DNA from: Escherichia coli
Lineage (GTDB): Bacteria; Pseudomonadota; Gammaproteobacteria; Enterobacterales; Enterobacteriaceae
DNA length: 64,000 nucleotides
Direction: 5' to 3' (one strand)
Assembly: GCF_003991155.1 (NCBI RefSeq)
Contig: NZ_CP031293.1
The notes under the pieces were generated by a model. That model saw only the letters and a program-made list of their open reading frames with translations. It was not told the origin of the DNA and made no database searches. A program made the position numbers and the translations under genes. Shown piece after piece: positions 5,650 through 61,640 of this stretch (position 1 is its first letter; every line of letters begins with the position of its first letter).

Positions 5650-6396
5650 TCAGCTTTTGTTATATAAGGCTTTCGTCTTTGAGGTAGTACGCTGGCGTAA
5701 ATGCCAGGATAATTCTGCCCAGAAGCCAGGCACATGTAATATTTGCCGTTGGACTTTTTTGGCATCAGCACACAATTCCATATTATTGGTGGTAGATACC
5801 CCACCCATGGAAAATTCAGACACCAGGCCATTGAGTTTTTTAAATGCATAACCGGCTTTATACATTTTGGCCGCCAGCGCGTAGTCGGAAGAAACTTTAT
5901 ATTCCAGGTCATAACGCCATTTCTTCAAGCCGGACACCGGGAAAAATATCGCCTGATGACTGGCGGGCAGGCTGTGGTAAATATACCAGCCCGGTTTGGC
6001 GCTACGTTTAATTTTATGCCCGTCGCCAAAATCCAGCAGCGCATCGCCGGTGATCATCACGTTATCTTTTTGCACTTTTAACTTACGGACAAAATTTGCG
6101 GCATCCTGATGAAAAATATCGCCCGAGTTGAGAAACAACGCGAACTTGCCTTGTGCCATCGCAATGCCCTTGTTCATGGCGTCGTAGATACCGTTATCTG
6201 GCTCGCTGACAAAGCGTAGGTTATAGATACCCTTGAGATTTTCCAGATACTCACGGGTACCGTCGTTGGAACCGCCATCGACAACAATCCATTCGAAGCT
6301 GATATCGTCCACCTGCGCTAGATGCGCCAGCGAGGCATGTGTTTTGACTATCCCTTCGAGGTTACGAAACGCGACAGTGATTATGCTAAGCAACAT
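5650..6396 (-). CDS. wcaE: colanic acid biosynthesis glycosyltransferase (GT2)
   Basis: 248-aa ORF, GT2-type motifs ([10 protein letters not shown], DxD-like). Confidence 0.88.
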
Positions 6397-6406
6397 GTTC
6401 TTATTC

Positions 6407-7624
6407 TTACCTCGTAATATTTAACGCTTTTCGCAAAATAAACGGACAGACGATTAAAAATGCATATTCCGGGCTAAATATCGAACCGGTAAAAAACAGC
6501 GATACCGGAGTAAAAAGATATAATTGCACGCGAAAATTGCGGTTATCACCAAAAGCGTTGATCATCATTTTTATCACTTTCCCCATGTACCACAGCGATA
6601 AAAACACTGCGAACCAGGAAAAATAAATAATCAGCAGATACAAACCATTGTCTATGGTTTTTCCGACATCCGCACCGTTAAATATTCCGAATGATGCGAC
6701 ATATTCATAAAGTGAGCCAAATCTGACTACACCGTCAATATGGGTCAAAGAATAACCGACCATCACCAGCGGACCGACAATACGATAATACGATGACGAA
6801 CCTTCCGTGCCTAAATCACCCAGACGGGTGGAAATATAAGGAAACGCGATTACCACACCAACCAGGAATACAGCCAGAGAAACCAATGCTAACGGTAACT
6901 TTTTCTTAATCGCCTCTTTATTCAGATATTGAAATGCCCACTCCAGCAAATAAAAAAGGATAAAGGTCATAACCCCTGAAAACGATCCGGATAATATTAT
7001 CCCTGCGAGAATCATAGCATCGGTTTTAGGCGTTTTGATACCAAACTGTTTGATGCTGAGCCAAATTGAGATTAATGCCAGAGCGAAAAATGCCGGTTCG
7101 AAATAAAGTGCTGTCGTGCGCTTGCCGCCGAATTTAATGAAATTCAGCACATAGCTGTTGCTGTAAATCAGATATTTCGAAATCGACTCCATAATACTGC
7201 TACCGCCGGTGAGGATAATTTGCGCCATCTCCACCGCCGCCAGCGCCACCACCAGCCCGACCACCAGATAAAAGAAACGTAATATCTTGCGATGGTTGTG
7301 TGGCGAAATTGTTTTAAAACGAATACTCCACACCATGCCAATAATGATCACAATATAGACAAACAGCATGGTTGAAGTGACGTATTTACTGGCATCCAAC
7401 GACTGACCAAACAGGTAGTTAAACGCCGTGAGTCCCGCACCAACCCCTAAGGCAATCATCAATTTTTTAACGTTGATGCGCTCTAAAAACAGCAGTAACA
7501 AGACGGGTAAAAAAGTGACGATGGTAATGGGGAAACTTTCGCCAAGCTGGGCGATTTTGACGTTAACCAGCAGGTAAATCAGCGGCAGCAGTAGGTAGCT
7601 ACAGATTCTGATAGAAGTTGACAT
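6407..7624 (-). CDS. wcaD: colanic acid polymerase (multi-TM)
   Basis: ORF-track entry is N-extended; start trimmed to [15 protein letters not shown]...; highly hydrophobic polytopic protein. Confidence 0.85.
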
Positions 7625-8816
7625 ACTCCTCCAGCATCTGTTGTCCACTGTAGGCGGCGCGGCTGCGTTGGCTAAACCCAGCCAGCGTGGTACCAAATAT
7701 CGCCTGCGCGATTTCCGGTTTGCTTAACTGCACCAGTTGCAGCACGTCTTCTTCGCTGACGGTTTTACCGCCGGATTTTTGCAGAACTTCCCGCGCCGCG
7801 TCGCTATGGGTGGCAATCACCGGCACGCCAATCGATAGCGCCTCACACAAAATCAGCGGGTAGTTATCGACGCGAGAACTGAATACCAGCGCATCCATCT
7901 GATTGAGCGCGCTCATCAACTTGCGCTTGTCAGTTTCAAAGCCGTGATTAACCACGTTGCCAGCGGTGAACGGCGAGAACTTACCAAAGGTATGCAGTTC
8001 AATTTTGTCGCCCAGCGCCATCATCTCACGTACCAGTTGCTGGTTAGTTTTGCCGTCGTAACGCAGATCATGCGCCACCACCGCGATTTTCGGCTTGTCC
8101 TGGGTTTCGCGCACCGGAGGCAAGTCCGCCAGAATCGCTTCGGTTGCCATATCAATACCGTTATTGATAATCCGGCAACGCCCTGGACCGTACAGACTAT
8201 TGAAAGCATCAGCCACATGCTGGCTGGGGGAAATAAACTGACAGCCCAGTGCCAGCATCTCGCGGAATAACTGGCGTTTACCCGCCACCAGCTGGTGCGC
8301 GCGATCAATCTTCACCGGTGGATAGTTATTTAAGGTCGGGCATTTCTGGCAGCCCGTTTTCCAGCCTTCGCAACCGTCGGTAAAGGCGCAGCGTCCGGTA
8401 ACGCTCCAGTGATCGTGTAACGTCCAGACCAGAGTGATATCCGGTTTATGGTTTTTCACTTTTTCGCAAAAGCGCACCACGCTCTTAAGATTCAACCAGT
8501 AGCTGTGCAGCACATGAAAATGCAGGACCACCGGACCCGGTGTGCGAGTAATGGTGCGATATAACTCATTGAAATTGCCGAACAGATCGCGATTAAACAG
8601 ACGAAACAACGCAATGTTCGCCATCGCGGTCATCCGCGGCGTATGTTTGATGACCTGCGGATAGTTTTGATGACTGACGCTCTCTTTGCCGCCTTTGCCG
8701 TAGCCGTAGACAAAATGTGACGCCAGCCCCTGTTGCAGCGCGCGCTGGTGGAGATCTAACGCCACACCTGCTGCCCCGCCTTCCGCCAGTCGCACATTGA
8801 ATTGCAGAATATTCAT
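7599..8816 (-). CDS. wcaC: colanic acid biosynthesis glycosyltransferase
   Basis: 405-aa ORF MNILQFNVRLAEGGAAGVALDLHQRA..., GT-B family. Confidence 0.9.
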   Translation of the reverse strand: MNILQFNVRLAEGGAAGVALDLHQRALQQGLASHFVYGYGKGGKESVSHQNYPQVIKHTPRMTAMANIALFRLFNRDLFGNFNELYRTITRTPGPVVLHFHVLHSYWLNLKSVVRFCEKVKNHKPDITLVWTLHDHWSVTGRCAFTDGCEGWKTGCQKCPTLNNYPPVKIDRAHQLVAGKRQLFREMLALGCQFISPSQHVADAFNSLYGPGRCRIINNGIDMATEAILADLPPVRETQDKPKIAVVAHDLRYDGKTNQQLVREMMALGDKIELHTFGKFSPFTAGNVVNHGFETDKRKLMSALNQMDALVFSSRVDNYPLILCEALSIGVPVIATHSDAAREVLQKSGGKTVSEEDVLQLVQLSKPEIAQAIFGTTLAGFSQRSRAAYSGQQMLEEYVNFYQNL

Positions 8817-14167: not shown

Positions 14168-14179
14168 CACGCTACCGCC
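14168..14179 (-). promoter_or_regulatory. ops element (GGCGGTAGCGTG) in wza leader
   Basis: Reverse complement of 14168-14179 is GGCGGTAGCGTG, the RfaH-recruiting ops consensus, upstream of wza on the minus strand. Confidence 0.7.
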
Positions 14180-14647
14180 CCTGGCTTTTTAGCTACCAAT
14201 ACACTGATTTAGCTTAATTTTTAAAACCCTCTCAACATACAGTCGTTGATGAGAAAGGGTTATTGCGGAAATTAACTTCCGAATATAAGGTGACATTATG
14301 GTAATTGAATATTGGCTCTCCAATAATGCAGGAGGAAGTGTTACAGCTAACGGAATAGCAGGCAAGGTAACAATTCGGCAATTGGCTATTTTTAAGAATT
14401 ATATTAAGTGTCATTCAATATGGTTTTTAGGAGTTTCTTTAGGTTGACAATATTTAATATAGTGTCTCCACATGCGATATTTCTTAAATAATGTTTTATT
14501 ATTACCACTTTTAATTCAGGGATAATGTGAGGTTATAACCCTCAAATAATATGAGATAAATAGTGCTGCAACATTGCATTTTTGCCCCGATTTATCCATG
14601 ATCGAATTGTGACATTTGTCATACAACGAATAGGTTTTGTACTTACT

Positions 14648-24829: not shown

Positions 24830-26182
24830 GTGTTTATTGGTTTTGATTACGGTACAGCAAACTGTTCAGTGGCGGTCATGCGCGACGGTAAACCGCATTT
24901 GCTAAAAATGGAAAACGACAGCACGCTGCTGCCTTCAATGCTTTGCGCGCCAACGCGTGAAGCGGTAAGCGAATGGCTGTACCGCCATCATGACGTTCCG
25001 GCAGACGACGATGAAACGCAGGCGCTGCTGCGTCGGGCGATTCGTTATAACCGCGAAGAAGATATCGATGTTACGGCGAAAAGCGTGCAGTTCGGTCTTT
25101 CCTCACTGGCACAGTACATTGATGATCCAGAAGAGGTGTGGTTTGTGAAATCACCAAAATCGTTCCTCGGTGCCAGCGGCTTAAAACCGCAGCAGGTAGC
25201 GCTGTTTGAGGATCTGGTCTGCGCAATGATGCTGCACATTCGCCAGCAGGCGCAGGCGCAATTGCCAGAAGCGATTACCCAGGCGGTGATTGGTCGCCCG
25301 ATCAACTTCCAGGGGCTGGGCGGCGATGAAGCAAACGCCCAGGCACAAGGGATTCTGGAGCGCGCAGCGAAGCGTGCCGGGTTTAAGGACGTGGTATTCC
25401 AGTACGAGCCGGTGGCGGCTGGGCTGGATTACGAAGCCACCTTGCAGGAAGAAAAACGGGTGCTGGTGGTGGATATTGGTGGTGGTACGACTGACTGTTC
25501 ATTGCTGCTGATGGGGCCGCAGTGGCGTTCGCGTCTCGATCGTGAAGCCAGCCTGCTGGGTCACAGTGGTTGCCGTATTGGCGGTAACGATCTGGATATC
25601 GCACTGGCGTTTAAAAACCTGATGCCGTTACTGGGCATGGGTGGCGAAACCGAAAAAGGCATCGCCCTGCCGATTCTGCCGTGGTGGAATGCGGTTGCCA
25701 TCAACGACGTCCCTGCGCAAAGTGATTTCTACAGTAGTGCCAACGGTCGTCTGCTTAACGATCTGGTACGCGATGCCCGCGAACCGGAAAAAGTGGCCCT
25801 GTTACAGAAAGTCTGGCGTCAGCGTTTAAGCTATCGCCTGGTACGTAGCGCAGAAGAGAGCAAAATTGCGCTTTCAAGCGTAGCGGAAACCCGCGCCTCA
25901 CTGCCGTTTATCAGCGATGAACTGGCTACGCTGATTAGCCAGCAAGGGCTGGAAAGCGCCCTCAACCAGCCACTGGCGCGGATTCTGGAACAGGTGCAAC
26001 TGGCGCTGGATAACGCCCAGGAAAAACCGGATGTCATCTATCTGACTGGTGGTAGCGCCCGATCGCCGCTGATTAAAAAAGCGCTGGCAGAACAGTTGCC
26101 GGGCATTCCGATTGCAGGCGGCGATGACTTTGGCTCCGTCACCGCCGGGCTGGCACGCTGGGCGGAAGTGGTGTTTCGTTAA
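24830..26182 (+). CDS. yegD: Hsp70-family (actin-like ATPase) protein
   Basis: Start trimmed to GTG at 24830 (MFIGFDYGTANCSVAV...), 450 aa; DnaK-like phosphate-binding motifs (VVDIGGGTTD). Confidence 0.88.
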   Translation: MFIGFDYGTANCSVAVMRDGKPHLLKMENDSTLLPSMLCAPTREAVSEWLYRHHDVPADDDETQALLRRAIRYNREEDIDVTAKSVQFGLSSLAQYIDDPEEVWFVKSPKSFLGASGLKPQQVALFEDLVCAMMLHIRQQAQAQLPEAITQAVIGRPINFQGLGGDEANAQAQGILERAAKRAGFKDVVFQYEPVAAGLDYEATLQEEKRVLVVDIGGGTTDCSLLLMGPQWRSRLDREASLLGHSGCRIGGNDLDIALAFKNLMPLLGMGGETEKGIALPILPWWNAVAINDVPAQSDFYSSANGRLLNDLVRDAREPEKVALLQKVWRQRLSYRLVRSAEESKIALSSVAETRASLPFISDELATLISQQGLESALNQPLARILEQVQLALDNAQEKPDVIYLTGGSARSPLIKKALAEQLPGIPIAGGDDFGSVTAGLARWAEVVFR

Positions 26183-26194
26183 TTGAAAAATGGC

Positions 26195-28135
26195 TCAGTA
26201 GCGGCTTAAATCAGCCTTCGCCTGAGCCAGTTTTTCTGCCGCCTGACGTAGCTGCTCCATCAACGGCATGGTCCGTGCTGGAGCATGAAGGCGGAATCGC
26301 TGCAACTCTGTCGCACCGACAGTCAACGCCGATTCCAGCCGATGTCGTTTGGCGGTCATTTTCGCCATTACCGCTTGTCTGTCTGCTGGCGTTACCGCTT
26401 CATTCGGCCTGAAAACAAAACGGCGTTCGCAACTCGCTTTCCAGTCGATAACCGCCTGGGTCAGATGATCACCAAAACCTTTTACTTGCTTAACGCTCCG
26501 TCGGGTAACATCTGCGGCGGTTTCAATACCAAAGGACCGTAACGCCGCTTTACGCGCAGGGCCAACGCCGGGAATAGAGGCAACATCAATAAAAAATCCC
26601 TCCAGAAACTTCTGCTTCTGCCGTTCCCTTGCGGTGTCCTGAAGTGCTGCCAGATCGCGCTTTTCTTCTTCCGGTAACCCAAGAATTTCGTCCTTCATTT
26701 TTTCGAGCATCGTCCGTTTGGCGATAAAACCTTCCAGCCCGCCCAACTGTTGGATCTGGCTGACTAAATGGTCATAGTCCATTTTTGCGCGATTAAAAGC
26801 CTCTCTTTGTCGCTGGACTTCTGCTTTGTACGCTTTGCTTGTCAGGCTGCCAATAATCCAGATAGCCGCCAGCACGGGAACCAAAATGATATAACGCGGT
26901 TCTACCTGAAGGCCGCAAAGCAGCAGCGATAACGCTGACAGTGCGATCTCAATCAGAATGATGTATTCACGCCTTAACAGGCCTAAAGGAAGCGGCCTGC
27001 CAGTCGGTTGGAAATGATCGGGTAATGGCAGTTGCAATGCTGGTGGTGCTACTGACGCCATCACCATCGCCCAGACTTTCGCCAGCACAAAATCACCGCT
27101 GGTGGTAATGACCTCTTCGCCGAGATCAATAAAATAGATAACGCCTTGATTATCCAGCGCACACCACGGGCAGTCAGTCAAATGACCGGGGTAAACATGC
27201 ATTGCCGAAACGGTACATTTCTTTAACTGTTGGCGTAGTAAATCAAGTGCCGCAACCCACGCTTTTGCCGTCGGACGCCCGGTTGCCACGCCACTTTCCG
27301 TGAATGCCTGCTGAAACATGGCTTCAACATCACCTGGTAACATCGACAGCGGAATAGATCGTGGCGGCGGTTTTAAACCACGTCGCTGATTATCTGACGC
27401 GTAGGCATAACGGAAATGGGCAATATCCGTCTCCAGCGCATTACCCGCATCAGAGATAAGCGGTACACCGGAATAAGGATGCCGACCACCAAACAAGACG
27501 TGAAAAATCAGCAACGCAAGGCCAAAATTATCGTGATTCGCGGTGCGTTCAAAGCCAACAAATGACGACAAGGTTTGTAGCTCTGGCGGCGTAAAATGCG
27601 ACACGCCAACTTCGCATAAATGCAACGTGCCATTAGCGTTAATCTGAAAGGAGTCGCTATCAATCAACACCACTTTGCTGTCGCGACCTACCATAAAGCT
27701 GTTCTGGTTTACGTCACCCACGACGTGCCCGTGCTCGTGAATCGTAGCAAAAGATGAAGCAATATTGCGCGCAACATAGAGTAGAAAATCCCACGCACAA
27801 TGAGGGTAACTCTGGCGACGATGTGCCGGGCTATAGATCATATGAATCGGTTCTTTACCTGAAACCTTCGGCATCATAAAACCGATAACCTTTCCGCCTC
27901 GTCCACCGTGAAGCGTTGCCTGCGGCCAGGCGACATAATTCAACAATTGCGCGTCAGCTGTCGCAGCCATAAAGGCAAGTTTGTCCTGTTTTAAGGCGGG
28001 TGGCGGCGTGTGATAAATCTTGGCAACGCTATCGGCAAACTCCTCGATATCATAAACCGCACCTTCACCGCCTTTGCCCAGTTCACGGCCTGGCGTAACG
28101 CACTCACCAGTAGCAGTATATAAAGTGGGTTTCAT
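26195..28135 (-). CDS. yegI: eukaryotic-like Ser/Thr protein kinase with two hydrophobic helices and C-terminal HhH-like motif
   Basis: Gly-rich loop GKGGEGAVY, VAKIY lysine, HVVGDVNQNSF catalytic-loop-like, IDSDSF DFG-like; ATG at 28135 forms ATGA overlap with yegK stop (ORF track extends to GTG 28144). Confidence 0.85.
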   Translation of the reverse strand: MKPTLYTATGECVTPGRELGKGGEGAVYDIEEFADSVAKIYHTPPPALKQDKLAFMAATADAQLLNYVAWPQATLHGGRGGKVIGFMMPKVSGKEPIHMIYSPAHRRQSYPHCAWDFLLYVARNIASSFATIHEHGHVVGDVNQNSFMVGRDSKVVLIDSDSFQINANGTLHLCEVGVSHFTPPELQTLSSFVGFERTANHDNFGLALLIFHVLFGGRHPYSGVPLISDAGNALETDIAHFRYAYASDNQRRGLKPPPRSIPLSMLPGDVEAMFQQAFTESGVATGRPTAKAWVAALDLLRQQLKKCTVSAMHVYPGHLTDCPWCALDNQGVIYFIDLGEEVITTSGDFVLAKVWAMVMASVAPPALQLPLPDHFQPTGRPLPLGLLRREYIILIEIALSALSLLLCGLQVEPRYIILVPVLAAIWIIGSLTSKAYKAEVQRQREAFNRAKMDYDHLVSQIQQLGGLEGFIAKRTMLEKMKDEILGLPEEEKRDLAALQDTARERQKQKFLEGFFIDVASIPGVGPARKAALRSFGIETAADVTRRSVKQVKGFGDHLTQAVIDWKASCERRFVFRPNEAVTPADRQAVMAKMTAKRHRLESALTVGATELQRFRLHAPARTMPLMEQLRQAAEKLAQAKADLSRY

Positions 28136-28893
28136 GGTAACCACATAGCCAGTGCCAACGTTTTATCATCATCCGTACGCTCGTTTACCGCCGGGCTGGA
28201 CAAAAACTGCTTTAACAATTCAGGTAATAAATCGAGTTGTTCCTGCGTTGCTGACGCCAGTCCATTGAAAAACGGGGTAAAGAAAGGCACATGCGGAGAA
28301 TTATCCAGCATATTTAACGCCAGTCTCTGAATACCATCCGTAAATGCTGCAACTCTATGCGCACGCTCAGTGCTGGTGAAAGTTTCCAGTCTGGAAACGG
28401 CATCTTCATCGGTAATGAAATGCGTCATGTTGGCATATTCACCCACCATCGGCGTGAGAGGCAATTGCAGACCGTGACCCAAATCTACCACCACGCCGCC
28501 ATCGCCAATCTGCATAATCAAGGTGCCGTCAGGCGATGAAATCAGTCCCAGAAATGTGCAGGCAAAATCGCGAACCGCTAATTCTTTGGCTTCCGCCTCG
28601 GCAAAAAGTCGCTGACGAACGGTCAGCACAATATCCGTTGCGAGGACATCATTAAGCCCCAATTCCCCGCCCTGCACTTTTTGCATCATATAAGCCATCG
28701 CTTCATTGACGGCAAGCGTCGCACCTTCGCCACCCTGCGAAACGCTGCCTGCGCCATCAGCGACAAATACCGTCAATAATGGCTGCTGGTCTTCTAGCCA
28801 GGCAACCTGCATCTGGCAGGCATCCTGGCAAGGCAAGTCCGCGCTGATGTGCGACGTTCCAACGGTTGATGCATAGACCAGACGCCAGCTCAC
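28132..28893 (-). CDS. pphC: PP2C-family Ser/Thr protein phosphatase
   Basis: 253-aa ORF; PP2C metal-binding signature ([16 protein letters not shown]); ATGA overlap with yegL stop at 28890-28893. Confidence 0.85.
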
Positions 28894-29549
28894 ACTGACG
28901 TCCAGCCTTTTGGCGCTTCCAGCACAACTTCCGTTCCCGGCGTGGAGCGGGAAACCGAACGCAGCGAACTGGATAACCAGCTAAACAGTTCACGGAATTG
29001 TAATCCCTGCAGTGGCAAAGGCTGACGAACGCTGATTTGTGCCAAAGTCTTCATATCCGCCCCCTGAACACCGATGGAAAAGAAGGCAAACTTCTTATCT
29101 TCTTCCCCCTGAAACACTTTGTTGGCGGCAGCCTGCCACTCATCGGTTGGAGCGCCATCAGTGATCAGGAAAATCCACGGGCGATAATACGAAATACCAT
29201 TGGCACGATACTCACGTTTGCGCTCCTCAACCATATTCAGGGCTTTGGTAATGGCAGCGCCCATTGGTGTATCGCCCTGGGCAAACAGGATGGGCGGGAA
29301 AAAATTAGCGGCGCTGGTAAAGGGTTGTTCCACATGCACCGGGCCGAACGTCACAATACCGAGTTCCACTCTTTTTAAGGCCAGCGAATCGGCAAGCAGC
29401 TCATCGCGAAAGGTAACCAATCCGGCGTTAAGTTCATTAATGGGTCTACCGTTCATAGAACCAGAAACATCCAGCAGCAAAATGCAGGGGCAACGTGGTT
29501 CCGGGTTACTGGCAAAATCGCTGGTGGCAAACGTGATTTGTTCGCTCAT
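28890..29549 (-). CDS. yegL: von Willebrand factor A domain protein (TerY-like)
   Basis: 219-aa ORF; MIDAS motif DVSGSM plus downstream ITDG. Confidence 0.85.
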
Positions 29550-29695: not shown

Positions 29696-29724
29696 TTGAC
29701 ACTAAGGGCGGAGTGACATAATTT
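29696..29724 (+). promoter_or_regulatory. sigma70-like promoter of first Sib RNA
   Basis: ttgaca (29696-29701), 17-nt spacer, taattt (29719-29724); equivalent ttgaca-N17-tacttt recurs in each later repeat (e.g. 30031-30059). Confidence 0.5.
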
Positions 29725-29730
29725 CAGGAG

Positions 29731-29877
29731 TGAGGGTTAGGGAGAGGTTTCCCCCTCCCCCTGGTGTTCTTAGTAAGCCTGGAAGCTAATCACTAAGAGT
29801 ATCACCAGTATGATGACGTGCTTCATCATAACCCTTTCCTTATTAAAAGTCCTCTTCTCCGGGAGAGGGTTTCCCGT
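29731..29877 (+). ncRNA. sib: Sib antisense RNA, copy 1 (approximate ends)
   Basis: Antisense to ibs copy 1, between the promoter and a GC hairpin plus T-rich tract (~29855-29880); ends inferred from recalled K-12 sibA geometry. Confidence 0.55.
29770..29829 (-). CDS. ibs: Ibs type I toxin peptide, copy 1 (MMKHVIILVILLVISFQAY)
   Basis: 19-codon minus-strand ORF read by hand; hydrophobic peptide matching the Ibs family; too short for the ORF track. Confidence 0.75.
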   Translation of the reverse strand: MMKHVIILVILLVISFQAY

Positions 29878-30065
29878 TTCAGCGTCCCGCTGAAATCGTC
29901 GGCTTACCTCCTTTCGCCCTGAATGCAGTCTATCGCTAACGCGTGAACAAAATAGTTTCCTCTGTGATTATTGCGTAACGTCTCGCAAAGAATATTTGCT
30001 GGCAGGATCGCAGACTACAAAGCCTGCGGATTGACAATCTGATTGTGAAGGCATACTTTCAGGAG

Positions 30066-30205
30066 TGAGGGTAGAGCGGGGTTTCCCCCGCCCTGGTAGT
30101 CTTAGTAAGCGGGGAAGCTTATGACTAAGAGCACCACGATGATGAGTATCTTCATCATGACCCTTTCCTTATTTAAGGCCCCTTCCTCGGGAGGGGCTTT
30201 CCCGT
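30066..30205 (+). ncRNA. sib: Sib antisense RNA, copy 2 (approximate ends)
   Basis: Promoter ttgaca 30031-30036 / tacttt 30054-30059; terminator hairpin ~30177-30207. Confidence 0.55.
30102..30158 (-). CDS. ibs: Ibs type I toxin peptide, copy 2 (MMKILIIVVLLVISFPAY)
   Basis: 18-codon minus-strand ORF read by hand. Confidence 0.75.
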   Translation of the reverse strand: MMKILIIVVLLVISFPAY

Positions 30206-30393
30206 TTCAGCGTCCCGCTGAAATCGTCGGCCTACCTCCTTTTGCCCTGAATACAGTCTATCGCTAACGCGTGAACAAAATAGTTTCCTCTGTGATTATT
30301 GCGTAACGTCTCGCAAAGAATATTTGCTGGCAGGATCGCAGACTACAAAGCCTGCGGATTGACAATCTGATTGTGAAGGCATACTTTCAGGAG

Positions 30394-30533
30394 TGAGGGT
30401 AGAGCGGGGTTTCCCCCGCCCTGGTAGTCTTAGTAAGCGGGGAAGCTTATGACTAAGAGCACCACGATGATGAGTATCTTCATCATGACCCTTTCCTTAT
30501 TTAAGGCCCCTTCCTCGGGAGGGGCTTTCCCGT
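30394..30533 (+). ncRNA. sib: Sib antisense RNA, copy 3 (approximate ends)
   Basis: Same repeat architecture, 328 bp downstream of copy 2. Confidence 0.55.
30430..30486 (-). CDS. ibs: Ibs type I toxin peptide, copy 3 (MMKILIIVVLLVISFPAY)
   Basis: 18-codon ORF identical to copy 2. Confidence 0.75.
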   Translation of the reverse strand: MMKILIIVVLLVISFPAY

Positions 30534-30721
30534 TTCAGCGTCCCGCTGAAATCGTCGGCCTACCTCCTTTTGCCCTGAATACAGTCTATCGCTAACGCGT
30601 GAACAAAATAGTTTCCCCTGTGATTATTGCGTAACGACTCGCAAAGAATATTTGCTGGCAGGATCGCAGACTACAAAGCCTGCGGATTGACAATCTGATT
30701 GTGAAGGCATACTTTCAGGAG

Positions 30722-30861
30722 TGAGGGTAGAGCGGGGTTTCCCCCGCCCTGGTAGTCTTAGTAAGCCGGGAAGCTTATGACTAAGAGCACCACGATGATG
30801 ATCCACTTCATCATGACCCTTTCCTTATTTAAGGCCCCTTCCTCGGGAGGGGCTTTCCCGT
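30722..30861 (+). ncRNA. sib: Sib antisense RNA, copy 4 (approximate ends)
   Basis: Same repeat architecture. Confidence 0.55.
30758..30814 (-). CDS. ibs: Ibs type I toxin peptide, copy 4 (MMKWIIIVVLLVISFPAY)
   Basis: 18-codon minus-strand ORF read by hand. Confidence 0.75.
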   Translation of the reverse strand: MMKWIIIVVLLVISFPAY

Positions 30862-31049
30862 TTCAGCGTCCCGCTGAAATCATCGGCTTACCTCCTTTCG
30901 CCCTGAATGCAGTCTATCGCTGACTTGCGGATAAAATAGTTTCACATGTGATTATTGCGTGACGTCTCGCAAAGAATATTTGCTGGCAGGATCGCAGACT
31001 GCAAAGCCTGCGGATTGACAATCGGACCGTGAAGGCATACTTTCAGGAG

Positions 31050-31189
31050 TGAGGGTAGAGCGGGGTTTCCCCCGCCCTGGTAGTCTTAGTATGCTGGGTA
31101 GCTAATCACTAAGAGCACCACGATGATGAGTAGCTTCATCATGACCCTTTCCTTATTTAAGGCCCCTTCCTCGGGAGGGGCTTTCCCGT
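31050..31189 (+). ncRNA. sib: Sib antisense RNA, copy 5 (approximate ends)
   Basis: Same repeat architecture. Confidence 0.55.
31086..31142 (-). CDS. ibs: Ibs type I toxin peptide, copy 5 (MMKLLIIVVLLVISYPAY)
   Basis: 18-codon minus-strand ORF read by hand. Confidence 0.75.
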   Translation of the reverse strand: MMKLLIIVVLLVISYPAY

Positions 31190-45182: not shown

Positions 45183-45266
45183 TTAATTTCGATTATTTTT
45201 CCCGGATGGAAAATTCTTAGAAACCGATCACATACAGCTGCATTTATTAAGGTTATCATCCGTTTC

Positions 45267-45353
45267 GCTGAAAAACATAACCCATAAAATGCTAGCTGTA
45301 CCAGGAACCACCTCCTTAGCCTGTGTAATCTCCCTTACACGGGCTTATTTTTT
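45267..45353 (+). ncRNA. cyaR: CyaR (RyeE) Hfq-dependent sRNA
   Basis: 87 nt gctgaaaaacataacccataaaatgctagctgtaccaggaaccacctcc...cacgggcttattttttt matches the CyaR sequence as I recall it, ending in a terminator hairpin plus U-run. Confidence 0.85.
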
Positions 45354-61491: not shown

Positions 61492-61640
61492 AGTTTGCTC
61501 CTGCCATAACGTGAAGAAGCAATGACCTGGTGGTCCGTGACTTCCCTACGCTGGCATTATCCAGATCAGGTGATACGGGTATTTCTCAGCCTTCACGCAG
61601 AAGGGCACCCCGAGTCGTTTGGTTGAATCTCTATATTTTG
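61492..61640 (-). promoter_or_regulatory. TPP (thi-box) riboswitch in thiM leader
   Basis: Minus-strand leader contains GGGGUGCCCUUCUGCGUGAAGGCUGAGAAAUACCCGUAUCACCUGAUCUGGAUAAUGCCAGCGUAGGGAAGUCACGG... with CUGAGA thi-box and SD-sequestering stem. Confidence 0.85.

Follow-up and report, generated by a model that had tools for sequence, protein, structure and literature searches.

Genes and junctions of the yegL-pphC-yegI locus

The window, by which we mean the whole 64,000-nucleotide stretch of Escherichia coli DNA analyzed here, carries the genes yegL, pphC (also named yegK) and yegI in this order on one strand, with yegD on one side and the sib/ibs-mdtA region on the other (Table 1). The gene order was read from the open reading frames, and matching genomes are annotated alike. 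When the window was compared with the K-12 proteins of the locus by tblastn, identities of 95-98% were obtained, and from residue 5 onward the YegI proteins of the window and K-12 are 95% identical. In gene orientation the pphC-yegI junction reads CTGGCTATGTGGTTACCATGAAACCCACT (window 28160..28115, minus strand), which bears out the initial annotation, where the yegK stop codon and the yegI ATG were described as overlapping in an ATGA. No Shine-Dalgarno core of at least 4 nt was found within 25 nt upstream of the yegI start. Downstream of the triad lie five Sib/Ibs repeats.

Table 1 Features of the yegD-yegL interval in the window.
Feature	Position	Strand	Basis
yegD, HSP70-family; convergent, left of the triad	24830..26182	+	98% identity to K-12 YegD; K-12 locus annotation
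yegI, eukaryotic-like Ser/Thr kinase, 646 aa	26195..28135	-	ORF list and translation
Junction segment, haplotype-specific, 50 bp; K-12 counterpart 785 bp with yegJ	28091..28140	-	blastn and global alignment against MG1655
ATGA overlap: pphC (yegK) stop TGA 28134..28132 and yegI start ATG 28135..28133	28132..28135	-	Direct sequence reading
pphC/yegK, PP2C phosphatase	28132..28893	-	Pfam PP2C_2, E = 3.4e-51; pphC annotation in matching genomes
GTGA overlap: yegL stop and pphC GTG start	28890..28893	-	Junction sequence
yegL, vWA-domain protein, 219 aa	28890..29549	-	Pfam VWA, E = 5.4e-10

YegL matches VWA_2 (E = 1.9e-7) in addition to the VWA model in Table 1, an assignment at the vWA level that does not distinguish a TerY-like subtype. 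The phosphatase activity of PphC has been demonstrated biochemically by others (bioRxiv 10.1101/303594), the kinase activity of YegI is described in the literature (bioRxiv 10.1101/303594, 10.1101/819920), and a membrane segment has been reported for YegI (PMC13232886). In our searches YegI gave no Pfam Pkinase match and weak matches to kinase-containing models, namely NCBIfam LanL (E = 5.7e-6) and the PADLOC models PD-T4-6 and MkoA (~1e-4). It has one CxxC motif (CPWC, residues 322-325) and a weak, sub-threshold HHH_5 (HhH) match at residues 515-551.

The K-12 junction is a replacement

In NC_000913.3 yegI (b2070, minus strand) and pphC (b2072, minus strand) are separated by yegJ (b2071, plus strand), the order that the initial annotation had given for K-12, and 725 bp lie between the start of yegI and the stop of pphC. 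Alignment against MG1655 confirms that K-12 is without the direct junction and has yegJ between the two genes. It had also been noted that no yegJ could be found between yegD and yegL in the window, and this holds for all 64 kb, where tblastn with K-12 YegJ and blastn with the K-12 insert returned zero matches. The K-12 YegJ protein matches Pfam DUF2314 (PF10077) with E = 2.2e-25, and no such sequence occurs in the window.

By blastn and global alignment, the 50-bp junction segment of the window corresponds to 785 bp in K-12 (7936..8720 of the K-12 locus L001). The flanks are approximately 96% identical to MG1655, and the break lies at 28090/28141 in the window and at 7935/8721 in L001. The proposal that K-12 carries an insertion was thus right in that K-12 has extra DNA bearing yegJ, but what the alignment shows is a replacement of 50 bp by 785 bp that alters the coding ends on both sides, which rules out a clean insertion with target-site features. 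The extra K-12 segment, estimated earlier at ~0.5 kb, is in fact about 0.73-0.79 kb. It is made up of a diverged 3' end of pphC, a hairpin, yegJ in the opposite orientation, an AT-rich spacer and a diverged 5' end of yegI. The GC content is 37% for the insert and 29% for the spacer, compared with 51-52% for yegI and pphC.

With the segment, K-12 exchanges the first 17 codons of yegI and the last codons of pphC for versions that are diverged yet homologous. The C-terminus of PphC is ..ALWAE in K-12 and ..AMWLP in the window, and the K-12 YegI N-terminus, MKTNIKVFTSTGELTTL, differs from the window type; because of this exchange, YegI has 648 residues in K-12 rather than 646. The 17 codons are a real yegI 5' end, diverged by ~45% (~55% nucleotide identity to the window type). 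The residues VFTSTGELTTL, which precede GRELG in K-12 YegI, fit a profile made from 49 non-Escherichia YegI N-termini (p ~1e-4 to 3e-4), and this test rules out that the K-12 N-terminus is a random read-in from the insert. The identity between K-12 and the window rises to at least 95% exactly at the stretches coding for GRELGKGGEG and DDDKTLALA.

RpoD promoters and an H-NS site have been reported in the spacer between yegI and yegJ (PMC3946193), and we placed them in the K-12 spacer sequence, where the promoters are divergent. An intrinsic terminator between pphC and yegJ was considered and rejected, the hairpin found there having no U tract and a terminator scan calling none; K-12 transcripts may for this reason read through from pphC into yegI, antisense to yegJ. 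The groups that published on the locus found no condition in which it is robustly expressed (bioRxiv 10.1101/303594, 10.1101/819920, PMC13232886). The yegJ product is described as binding RNase E and as causing envelope toxicity on overexpression.

Distribution within E. coli

The survey covered 5,426 complete E. coli genomes, and this collection is biased, K-12 laboratory derivatives being numerous in it. The direct junction (90 bp at at least 95% identity) was present in ~3,470 of them and the yegJ segment in 1,899 (about 35%). The 90-bp window junction is 100% identical in Nissle 1917 and 96.7% identical in EDL933. It is clear from these numbers that yegJ is not specific to K strains, which corrects a published statement (PMC13232886). 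Four yegJ-positive subtypes were examined; they have common boundaries and a common YegI N-terminus, and their inserts are 94.5-98.6% identical, the divergence among E. coli strains reaching 5.5%.

The yegJ state is uncoupled from the alleles of the neighboring genes. Alleles of yegI and pphC are 92-97% identical among strains, pphC falls into two classes within E. coli that are about 92% identical, and the pphC of the E69 lineage is only ~80% identical. Linkage of the yegJ state to flanking alleles was looked for and not found, the flanks being recombined. A few strains have IS1 copies at the locus, which are secondary events.

The locus in other species

Outside E. coli we examined 76 PphC loci of other species with a detectable kinase. 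In 74 of these pphC and yegI are adjacent, at distances of -34 to +92 nt when start codons are picked heuristically, and 21 have the identical 4-nt overlap. Considering both figures, the overlap is a non-chance feature. None of the 76 yegL-pphC-yegI loci contains a YegJ homologue. A contiguous triad without yegJ is found in Escherichia sp. MOD1-EC7003, Escherichia sp. E1V33, E. whittamii, the divergent 'E. coli E69' lineage, Klebsiella spallanzanii and about 70 more distant bacteria, and the 4-nt overlap between pphC and yegI is common to the four non-coli Escherichia lineages and K. spallanzanii. The cassette as such is conserved across many phyla. Since adjacency prevails in 74 of 76 loci, including four Escherichia lineages, with yegJ in none, the sequence comparison supports the window arrangement as the ancestral and majority form and that of K-12 as a derived minority form. 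The initial annotation had left the direction open, and of its two alternatives the one with this strain as ancestral is supported, all sampled relatives being contiguous and without yegJ.

The closest homologues of yegJ are found in Superficieibacter, in the same yegD-mdtA interval and without the triad. In Superficieibacter electus (L085) and in a related metagenomic enterobacterium (L086) yegJ follows directly after yegD on the same strand, and in L086 mdtA and mdtB come after yegJ. Nucleotide identities between these loci and K-12 are 75% for yegJ, 77-79% for yegD and 79.5% for mdtAB. Because the closest relatives share the interval and the divergence resembles that of the flanking core genes, yegJ may have long resided in the yegD-mdtA interval, as opposed to being foreign DNA, and could predate the triad there. 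Homology to the K-12 insert at these loci is confined to the yegJ coding sequence and ~18 bp upstream; no trace of the 5' end of yegI or of the 3' end of pphC was detected, nor any Sib RNA between yegJ and mdtA in L085 and L086 at the Rfam gathering threshold.

A search for a donor gave no candidate. A plasmid or mobile element as carrier of yegJ was rejected after tblastn against 72,556 plasmid records, in which the matches were limited to distant DUF2314 genes and to chromosomes wrongly labelled as plasmids. YegJ homologues of 79-92% identity proved to come from fragmented E. coli assemblies arranged as in K-12, and those of 60-67% identity lie in unrelated environmental contexts without a kinase. 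Among 79 species-level representatives no locus has yegJ beside a kinase, and the same is true of every YegJ homologue context.

Interpretation of the two junctions

We consider it very probable that the window carries the ancestral coupled operon and K-12 a derived replacement of single origin. Here the window would represent the uninterrupted operon yegL (vWA), pphC (PP2C phosphatase) and yegI (Ser/Thr kinase), whose genes are linked by stop/start overlaps of 4 nt, first GTGA and next ATGA. Lacking its own Shine-Dalgarno sequence, yegI would most likely be translated in coupling with the termination of pphC, and such coupling would tie the synthesis of kinase and phosphatase to a single transcript. 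The K-12 allele would have arisen once, when the AT-rich 785-bp segment took the place of the 50-bp junction, presumably uncoupling yegI from pphC and supplying yegI with a promoter of its own. Both alleles would then have persisted in E. coli until the insert had diverged by ~5%, while recombination shuffled the flanking genes. In the literature PphC dephosphorylates autophosphorylated YegI, and pphC and yegI of B strains are described as one operon (bioRxiv 10.1101/303594, 10.1101/819920). It counts against this explanation that a simple insertion leaves the diverged real yegI 5' end of 17 codons unexplained.

The K-12 junction could be the remnant of an introgression. In this case yegJ would have come to sit between pphC and yegI in an unsampled enterobacterial lineage with a diverged triad, the whole locus would have entered E. 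coli by homologous recombination, and recombination with the common allele would later have reduced the incoming DNA to 785 bp, the remaining part being that which could not be converted without loss of yegJ. The VFTSTGELTTL stretch, fitting the non-Escherichia profile in spite of its low nucleotide identity to the window type, points in this direction, as do the residues at the K-12 junction (...ALW in pphC; ...TSTG..TLG in YegI), which match K. spallanzanii and the wider family and differ from the yegJ-negative states of Escherichia (AMW; TATG..TPG). The abrupt return to at least 95% identity within conserved coding stretches and the circulation of divergent pphC alleles at the locus, E69 included, are likewise consistent with it. 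On the other hand no donor was found among the representatives or YegJ contexts described above, the identical nucleotide stretches that distant homologues share at the proposed crossovers are short, 5-8 nt in yegI and at most 18 nt in pphC, and the argument is based on very short sequences. We hold such an introgression to be possible but doubtful, and it would refine the single-replacement explanation, not displace it.

Reversing the polarity seems improbable to us. The yegJ-positive form would then be ancestral in E. coli, and the window junction would have come about either because yegJ was deleted or because an uninterrupted cassette was imported again from a different Escherichia lineage. 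Such a history would agree with the position of yegJ directly after yegD in L085 and L086 and its near-core level of divergence, and with the insert being as old as the diversification of E. coli, given the divergence of up to 5.5% among strains. A deletion would, however, have to recreate the exact ATGA overlap together with the YegI N-terminus common to E. whittamii, the other Escherichia lineages and K. spallanzanii; yegJ occurs neither within nor next to the triad in any outgroup, and the cassette is contiguous in 74 of the 76 lineages. An error of assembly or sequencing as the reason why the window has no yegJ is refuted, nothing was found in its favor, and its likelihood is practically nil: the junction recurs in ~3,470 independent complete genomes, Nissle 1917 and EDL933 among them, and the 24 kb around it are 100% identical to several independent chromosomes.

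A more far-reaching and rather unlikely scenario is that the presence and absence of yegJ is an ancient polymorphism predating the diversification of E. coli, which would switch a TerY-P-like module between the coupled state and a state with an H-NS-silenced kinase under its own promoter beside yegJ. The yegJ-positive junction would be the last unconverted remnant of an introgressed diverged triad, and yegJ an original yegD-mdtA resident caught inside the incoming cassette.

Functional work on YegI, PphC and YegJ has been done almost entirely in K-12 or in K-12 compared with B strains. If K-12 represents a derived minority wiring (~35% of complete genomes) and the coupled operon the ancestral one, conserved across phyla, what has been concluded from K-12 about the stoichiometry and regulation of this kinase and phosphatase may not hold for the majority of E. 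coli, B2, O157 and Nissle-type strains included. Otherwise this is an ordinary presence/absence polymorphism.

Comparison with known systems

The TerY-P (TerY-phosphorylation) triad of Anantharaman, Iyer and Aravind (2012) combines, in the passages of PMC11090510 and PMC4978471 that describe it, a TerY-like vWA protein, encoded first, with a PP2C-like phosphatase and a Ser/Thr kinase, the kinase having a C-terminal zinc ribbon fusion, or an OB fold in the defence-validated variant. The window triad resembles it as a tightly linked cassette that starts with a vWA protein and a PP2C phosphatase and ends with YegI, a Ser/Thr kinase according to the literature. It may differ in the C-terminal part of YegI, which shows neither a clear zinc ribbon nor a clear OB fold. 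With PADLOC-DB v2 (E <= 1e-3), a result that covers the models of that database, whichever TerY-P ones those include, YegL and PphC were unmatched and YegI matched MkoA and PD-T4-6 only in their generic kinase parts; that the triad belongs to a PADLOC defence family, including the TerY-P-like antiphage system (Gao et al. 2020), was rejected for lack of YegL and PphC profile matches. The literature searched contained no link between yegI and TerY-P.

The contrast between the direct junction and yegJ is already published: the ATGA overlap in REL606 and O157:H7 and yegJ in K strains were described by Rajagopalan and Dworkin (FEBS Lett 2020; bioRxiv 10.1101/819920), and the contrast also by Rajagopalan, Nagle and Dworkin (J Bacteriol 2018; bioRxiv 10.1101/303594) and in PMC13232886, which confines yegJ to K strains. 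New here are the polarity, the frequencies within E. coli, the 785-for-50 bp replacement with its swapped coding ends and the separate, H-NS-bound promoter it provides for yegI, and the Superficieibacter context of the yegJ homologues. Set beside the operon in REL606 (E. coli B) and O157:H7, the window carries the same genes in the same order, with pphC and yegI likewise overlapping by the 4 nt ATGA, and has nothing different in kind; it differs only in allele sequence and in the five downstream Sib/Ibs repeats. With K-12 b2070-b2072 it shares the flanking genes (~96% nucleotide identity) and the yegD-mdtA interval, whereas K-12 has, in place of 50 bp, the 785 bp with yegJ, spacer, hairpin and altered PphC C-terminus and YegI N-terminus.

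The pphC-yegI junction in the window

Read in gene orientation, the junction runs ...GCT ATG TGG TTA CCA TGA, with the yegI ATG embedded as CC-ATGA-AA. Because the pphC TGA (28134..28132) and the yegI ATG (28135..28133) are embedded together in this way, the two genes share an ATGA (28132..28135), as the initial annotation had observed; the equivalent overlap of yegL with pphC is GTGA. The reported absence of yegJ was borne out as well: searches of the 64-kb window with K-12 YegJ (tblastn) and with the K-12 insert (blastn) gave no match. The 24 kb around the junction are 100% identical to several complete genomes, and the window is ordinary E. coli chromosome.

Features of the window around and beyond the yegL-pphC-yegI cassette
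Feature	Position	Strand	Basis
yegL	28890..29549	-	ORF
pphC (formerly yegK)	28132..28893	-	ORF
yegI	26195..28135	-	ORF
Sib RNA (RF00113), five tandem copies	29696..31157	+	139-150 bits each, ~328 bp spacing
CyaR/RyeE sRNA	45265..45350	+	Rfam gathering-level match
TPP riboswitch	61526..61622	-	Rfam gathering-level match
JUMPstart element	14168..14206	-	Rfam gathering-level match

The last three entries are ordinary E. coli features. Ibs toxin genes are expected antisense to the five Sib copies; K-12 has two copies at that site (sibA/ibsA and sibB/ibsB), and three ibs genes are annotated in EDL933, ST69 and other genomes. Strains thus differ at this locus in how many copies of the type I toxin-antitoxin repeat they carry.

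The K-12 arrangement

The annotation of MG1655 (NC_000913.3) places yegJ (b2071, +, DUF2314) between yegI (b2070, -) and pphC (b2072, -), just as stated in the initial annotation, with 725 bp from the yegI start to the pphC stop. The flanks of window and K-12 are ~96% identical, with alignment breakpoints at window 28090/28141 and K-12 locus 7935/8721, so that the extra K-12 segment that had been anticipated is present, although not at the expected ~0.5 kb: 785 bp in K-12 correspond to 50 bp in the window. The difference is a replacement rather than a clean insertion. The PphC C-terminus reads ..LALAMWLP in the window vs ..LALALWAE in K-12, and the YegI N-terminus also differs between the haplotypes, K-12 YegI starting MKTNIKVFTSTGELTTLGRELG.

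At 37% GC the K-12 segment is AT-rich, and its yegI-yegJ spacer even more so (29%), compared with 51-52% in yegI and pphC. A published genomic-SELEX study assigned to this spacer an H-NS site as well as RpoD promoters that drive yegI and yegJ divergently (PMC3946193); we found both published promoters in the K-12 sequence, the yegI -10 element ending 15 nt upstream of the ATG. A Shine-Dalgarno core upstream of yegI is absent in both haplotypes. Between the convergent pphC and yegJ lies an 11-bp hairpin (z = -2.7) without a U tract, at which the terminator scan called no terminator.

Polarity of the change

A PphC scan with one genome per species gave 79 loci, 76 of them with a detectable kinase. 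By tblastn the order is yegL-pphC-yegI in 75 of the 76, the single exception (L078, an Acidobacteria MAG) having the kinase upstream of yegL, and none of these loci yielded a YegJ homologue. The pphC-yegI distance lies between -34 and +92 nt in 74/76 loci and is exactly -4 in 21; only in L078 and in L076, a Melainabacteria MAG with a gap of ~1.2 kb (5750..7009) that lacks YegJ homology, are the two genes not adjacent. The 4-nt overlap is also present in Escherichia MOD1-EC7003, E1V33, E. whittamii and E69 as well as in Klebsiella spallanzanii, and these four other Escherichia lineages have the window-type YegI N-terminus. Together, the contiguity of the triad, the overlap and the N-terminus across relatives argue strongly that the uninterrupted form is ancestral and K-12 derived. 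Of the two alternatives offered, that this strain keeps the ancestral state and K-12 carries an insertion, or the reverse, the first is thereby supported in its polarity, while a clean insertion is not.

Origin of the K-12 block

The nearest non-E. coli YegJ homologues (75-76% identical) are from Superficieibacter electus and from an enterobacterium related to it and known from a metagenome. Both lack the triad and have yegJ immediately 3' of yegD on the same strand; on the metagenomic contig the next genes are mdtA and mdtB. At the nucleotide level yegJ is 75% identical to K-12, yegD 77-79% and mdtAB 79.5%. Because of this synteny, and a divergence similar to that of yegD and mdtAB, yegJ looks like an old resident of the yegD-mdtA interval and not recent foreign DNA; we did not find it on plasmids. 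Nothing in these two loci corresponds to the non-coding parts of the K-12 insert. Where mdtA would be, downstream of yegJ, S. electus carries an apparent T6SS effector/immunity island (PQGD01000001.1, locus L085, 5914..9530) with the families SUKH_5/SMI1_KNR4, Tli3, Tle3_C and Imm52.

The K-12 yegI 5' end has ~55% nucleotide identity to the window type, while the adjoining 1.9 kb are 95-99% identical. Its VFTSTGELTTL, just before GRELG, fits a profile of 49 non-Escherichia YegI N-termini; equal or better scores came from 22 of 85,762 null 11-mers and from 33 of 300,000 AT-rich random draws, stop-containing draws being skipped and still counted. Since null sequences so rarely reach this score, the diverged stretch is genuine yegI 5' sequence. 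Next to the junction, the K-12 residues (PphC ..ALW; YegI TSTG..TLG) agree with those of K. spallanzanii and of the family at large, not with the Escherichia states lacking yegJ. Most economically, the block would have come from another triad lineage, not sampled here, in which yegJ was already present, and would later have been trimmed to a minimum by recombination. The exact runs shared where the crossovers are presumed are short, and no donor was found among the examined YegJ homologues and their contexts.

Frequency and age of the yegJ form

The yegJ segment is present at >=80% coverage in 1,899/5,426 complete E. coli genomes, a collection biased by many laboratory K-12 derivatives, and the window-type junction in 3,470, among them Nissle 1917 (100%) and EDL933 (96.7%). 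Identity of the segment is >=99% in 1,159 genomes, 95-99% in 557 and 90-95% in 217. As its carriers include swine, river-water, chicken and clinical strains and an O15:H18 ST69 isolate, yegJ is far from K-specific, though the minority form. The few partial matches stem from divergent alleles or from rearrangement by IS1. Some strains have IS1 in the K-12-type locus: it splits pphC and replaces yegJ in strain 510016 (L083, NZ_CP025851.1), and splits yegJ in EM18-18-42 (H1).

K-12, EC-JS426, GPEC505 and ST69 have identical boundaries and essentially one replaced YegI N-terminus, which points to a single origin. With 94.5-98.6% identity among them, their inserts have diverged about as much as the flanking genes, and the event is therefore old. 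The yegJ state is uncoupled from the flanking alleles, recombination having shuffled the flanks: yegI of HS-01 (without yegJ) is 98.6-98.8% identical to that of K-12 and EC-JS426, and pphC of EC-JS426 (with yegJ) is 96.9% identical to that of 1EC213 (without yegJ) vs 92.9% to K-12.

The pphC gene is unusually polymorphic, with two E. coli allele classes ~92-93% identical, as distant as separate Escherichia species and uncoupled from the yegJ state (window, K-12 locus L001 and loci L094-L098, L084 and L026). In 'E. coli E69' (CP089930.1) pphC is ~80% identical, yet yegL and yegI are 92-94%. This pattern suggests that alleles inside the cassette have been replaced more than once. Annotated frameshifts are found in yegI of 1EC213 (L097, 2926..4865), and dgcE is frameshifted in 1EC213 and in the EDL933 assembly used (L096). 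Recurrent yegI mutations have been reported from the long-term evolution experiment (bioRxiv 10.1101/303594).

Relation to published work and known systems

REL606 has pphC directly ahead of yegI, whereas yegJ intervenes in opposite orientation in MG1655 (Rajagopalan, Nagle and Dworkin; bioRxiv 10.1101/303594), and the four-nucleotide ATGA overlap of REL606 and O157:H7 is broken by yegJ in K strains (Rajagopalan and Dworkin; bioRxiv 10.1101/819920). Göpel et al. 2026 describe the same contrast again and claim yegJ to occur solely in K strains (PMC13232886). The present finding thus correctly rediscovers a published fact; the observation holds and its interpretation is supported. Our additions, all modest, are the polarity and the population frequency, the exact boundaries, the regulatory elements that the insert contains, the syntenic position of yegJ in Superficieibacter, and the unusual diverged ends.

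Pfam assigns YegL to the vWA proteins and PphC to the PP2C_2 phosphatases; that YegI is active as a kinase and is dephosphorylated by PphC is known from earlier work (bioRxiv 10.1101/303594, bioRxiv 10.1101/819920). Neither YegL nor PphC is matched by a PADLOC model, and no link between yegI and TerY-P was found in the literature searched. The C-terminal zinc-ribbon or OB feature of TerY-P kinases is not evident in YegI, but the architecture of the cassette equals that of the TerY-P triad (PMC11090510, PMC4978471), and rather than a demonstrated TerY-P member or defence system we regard it as TerY-P-like in architecture.
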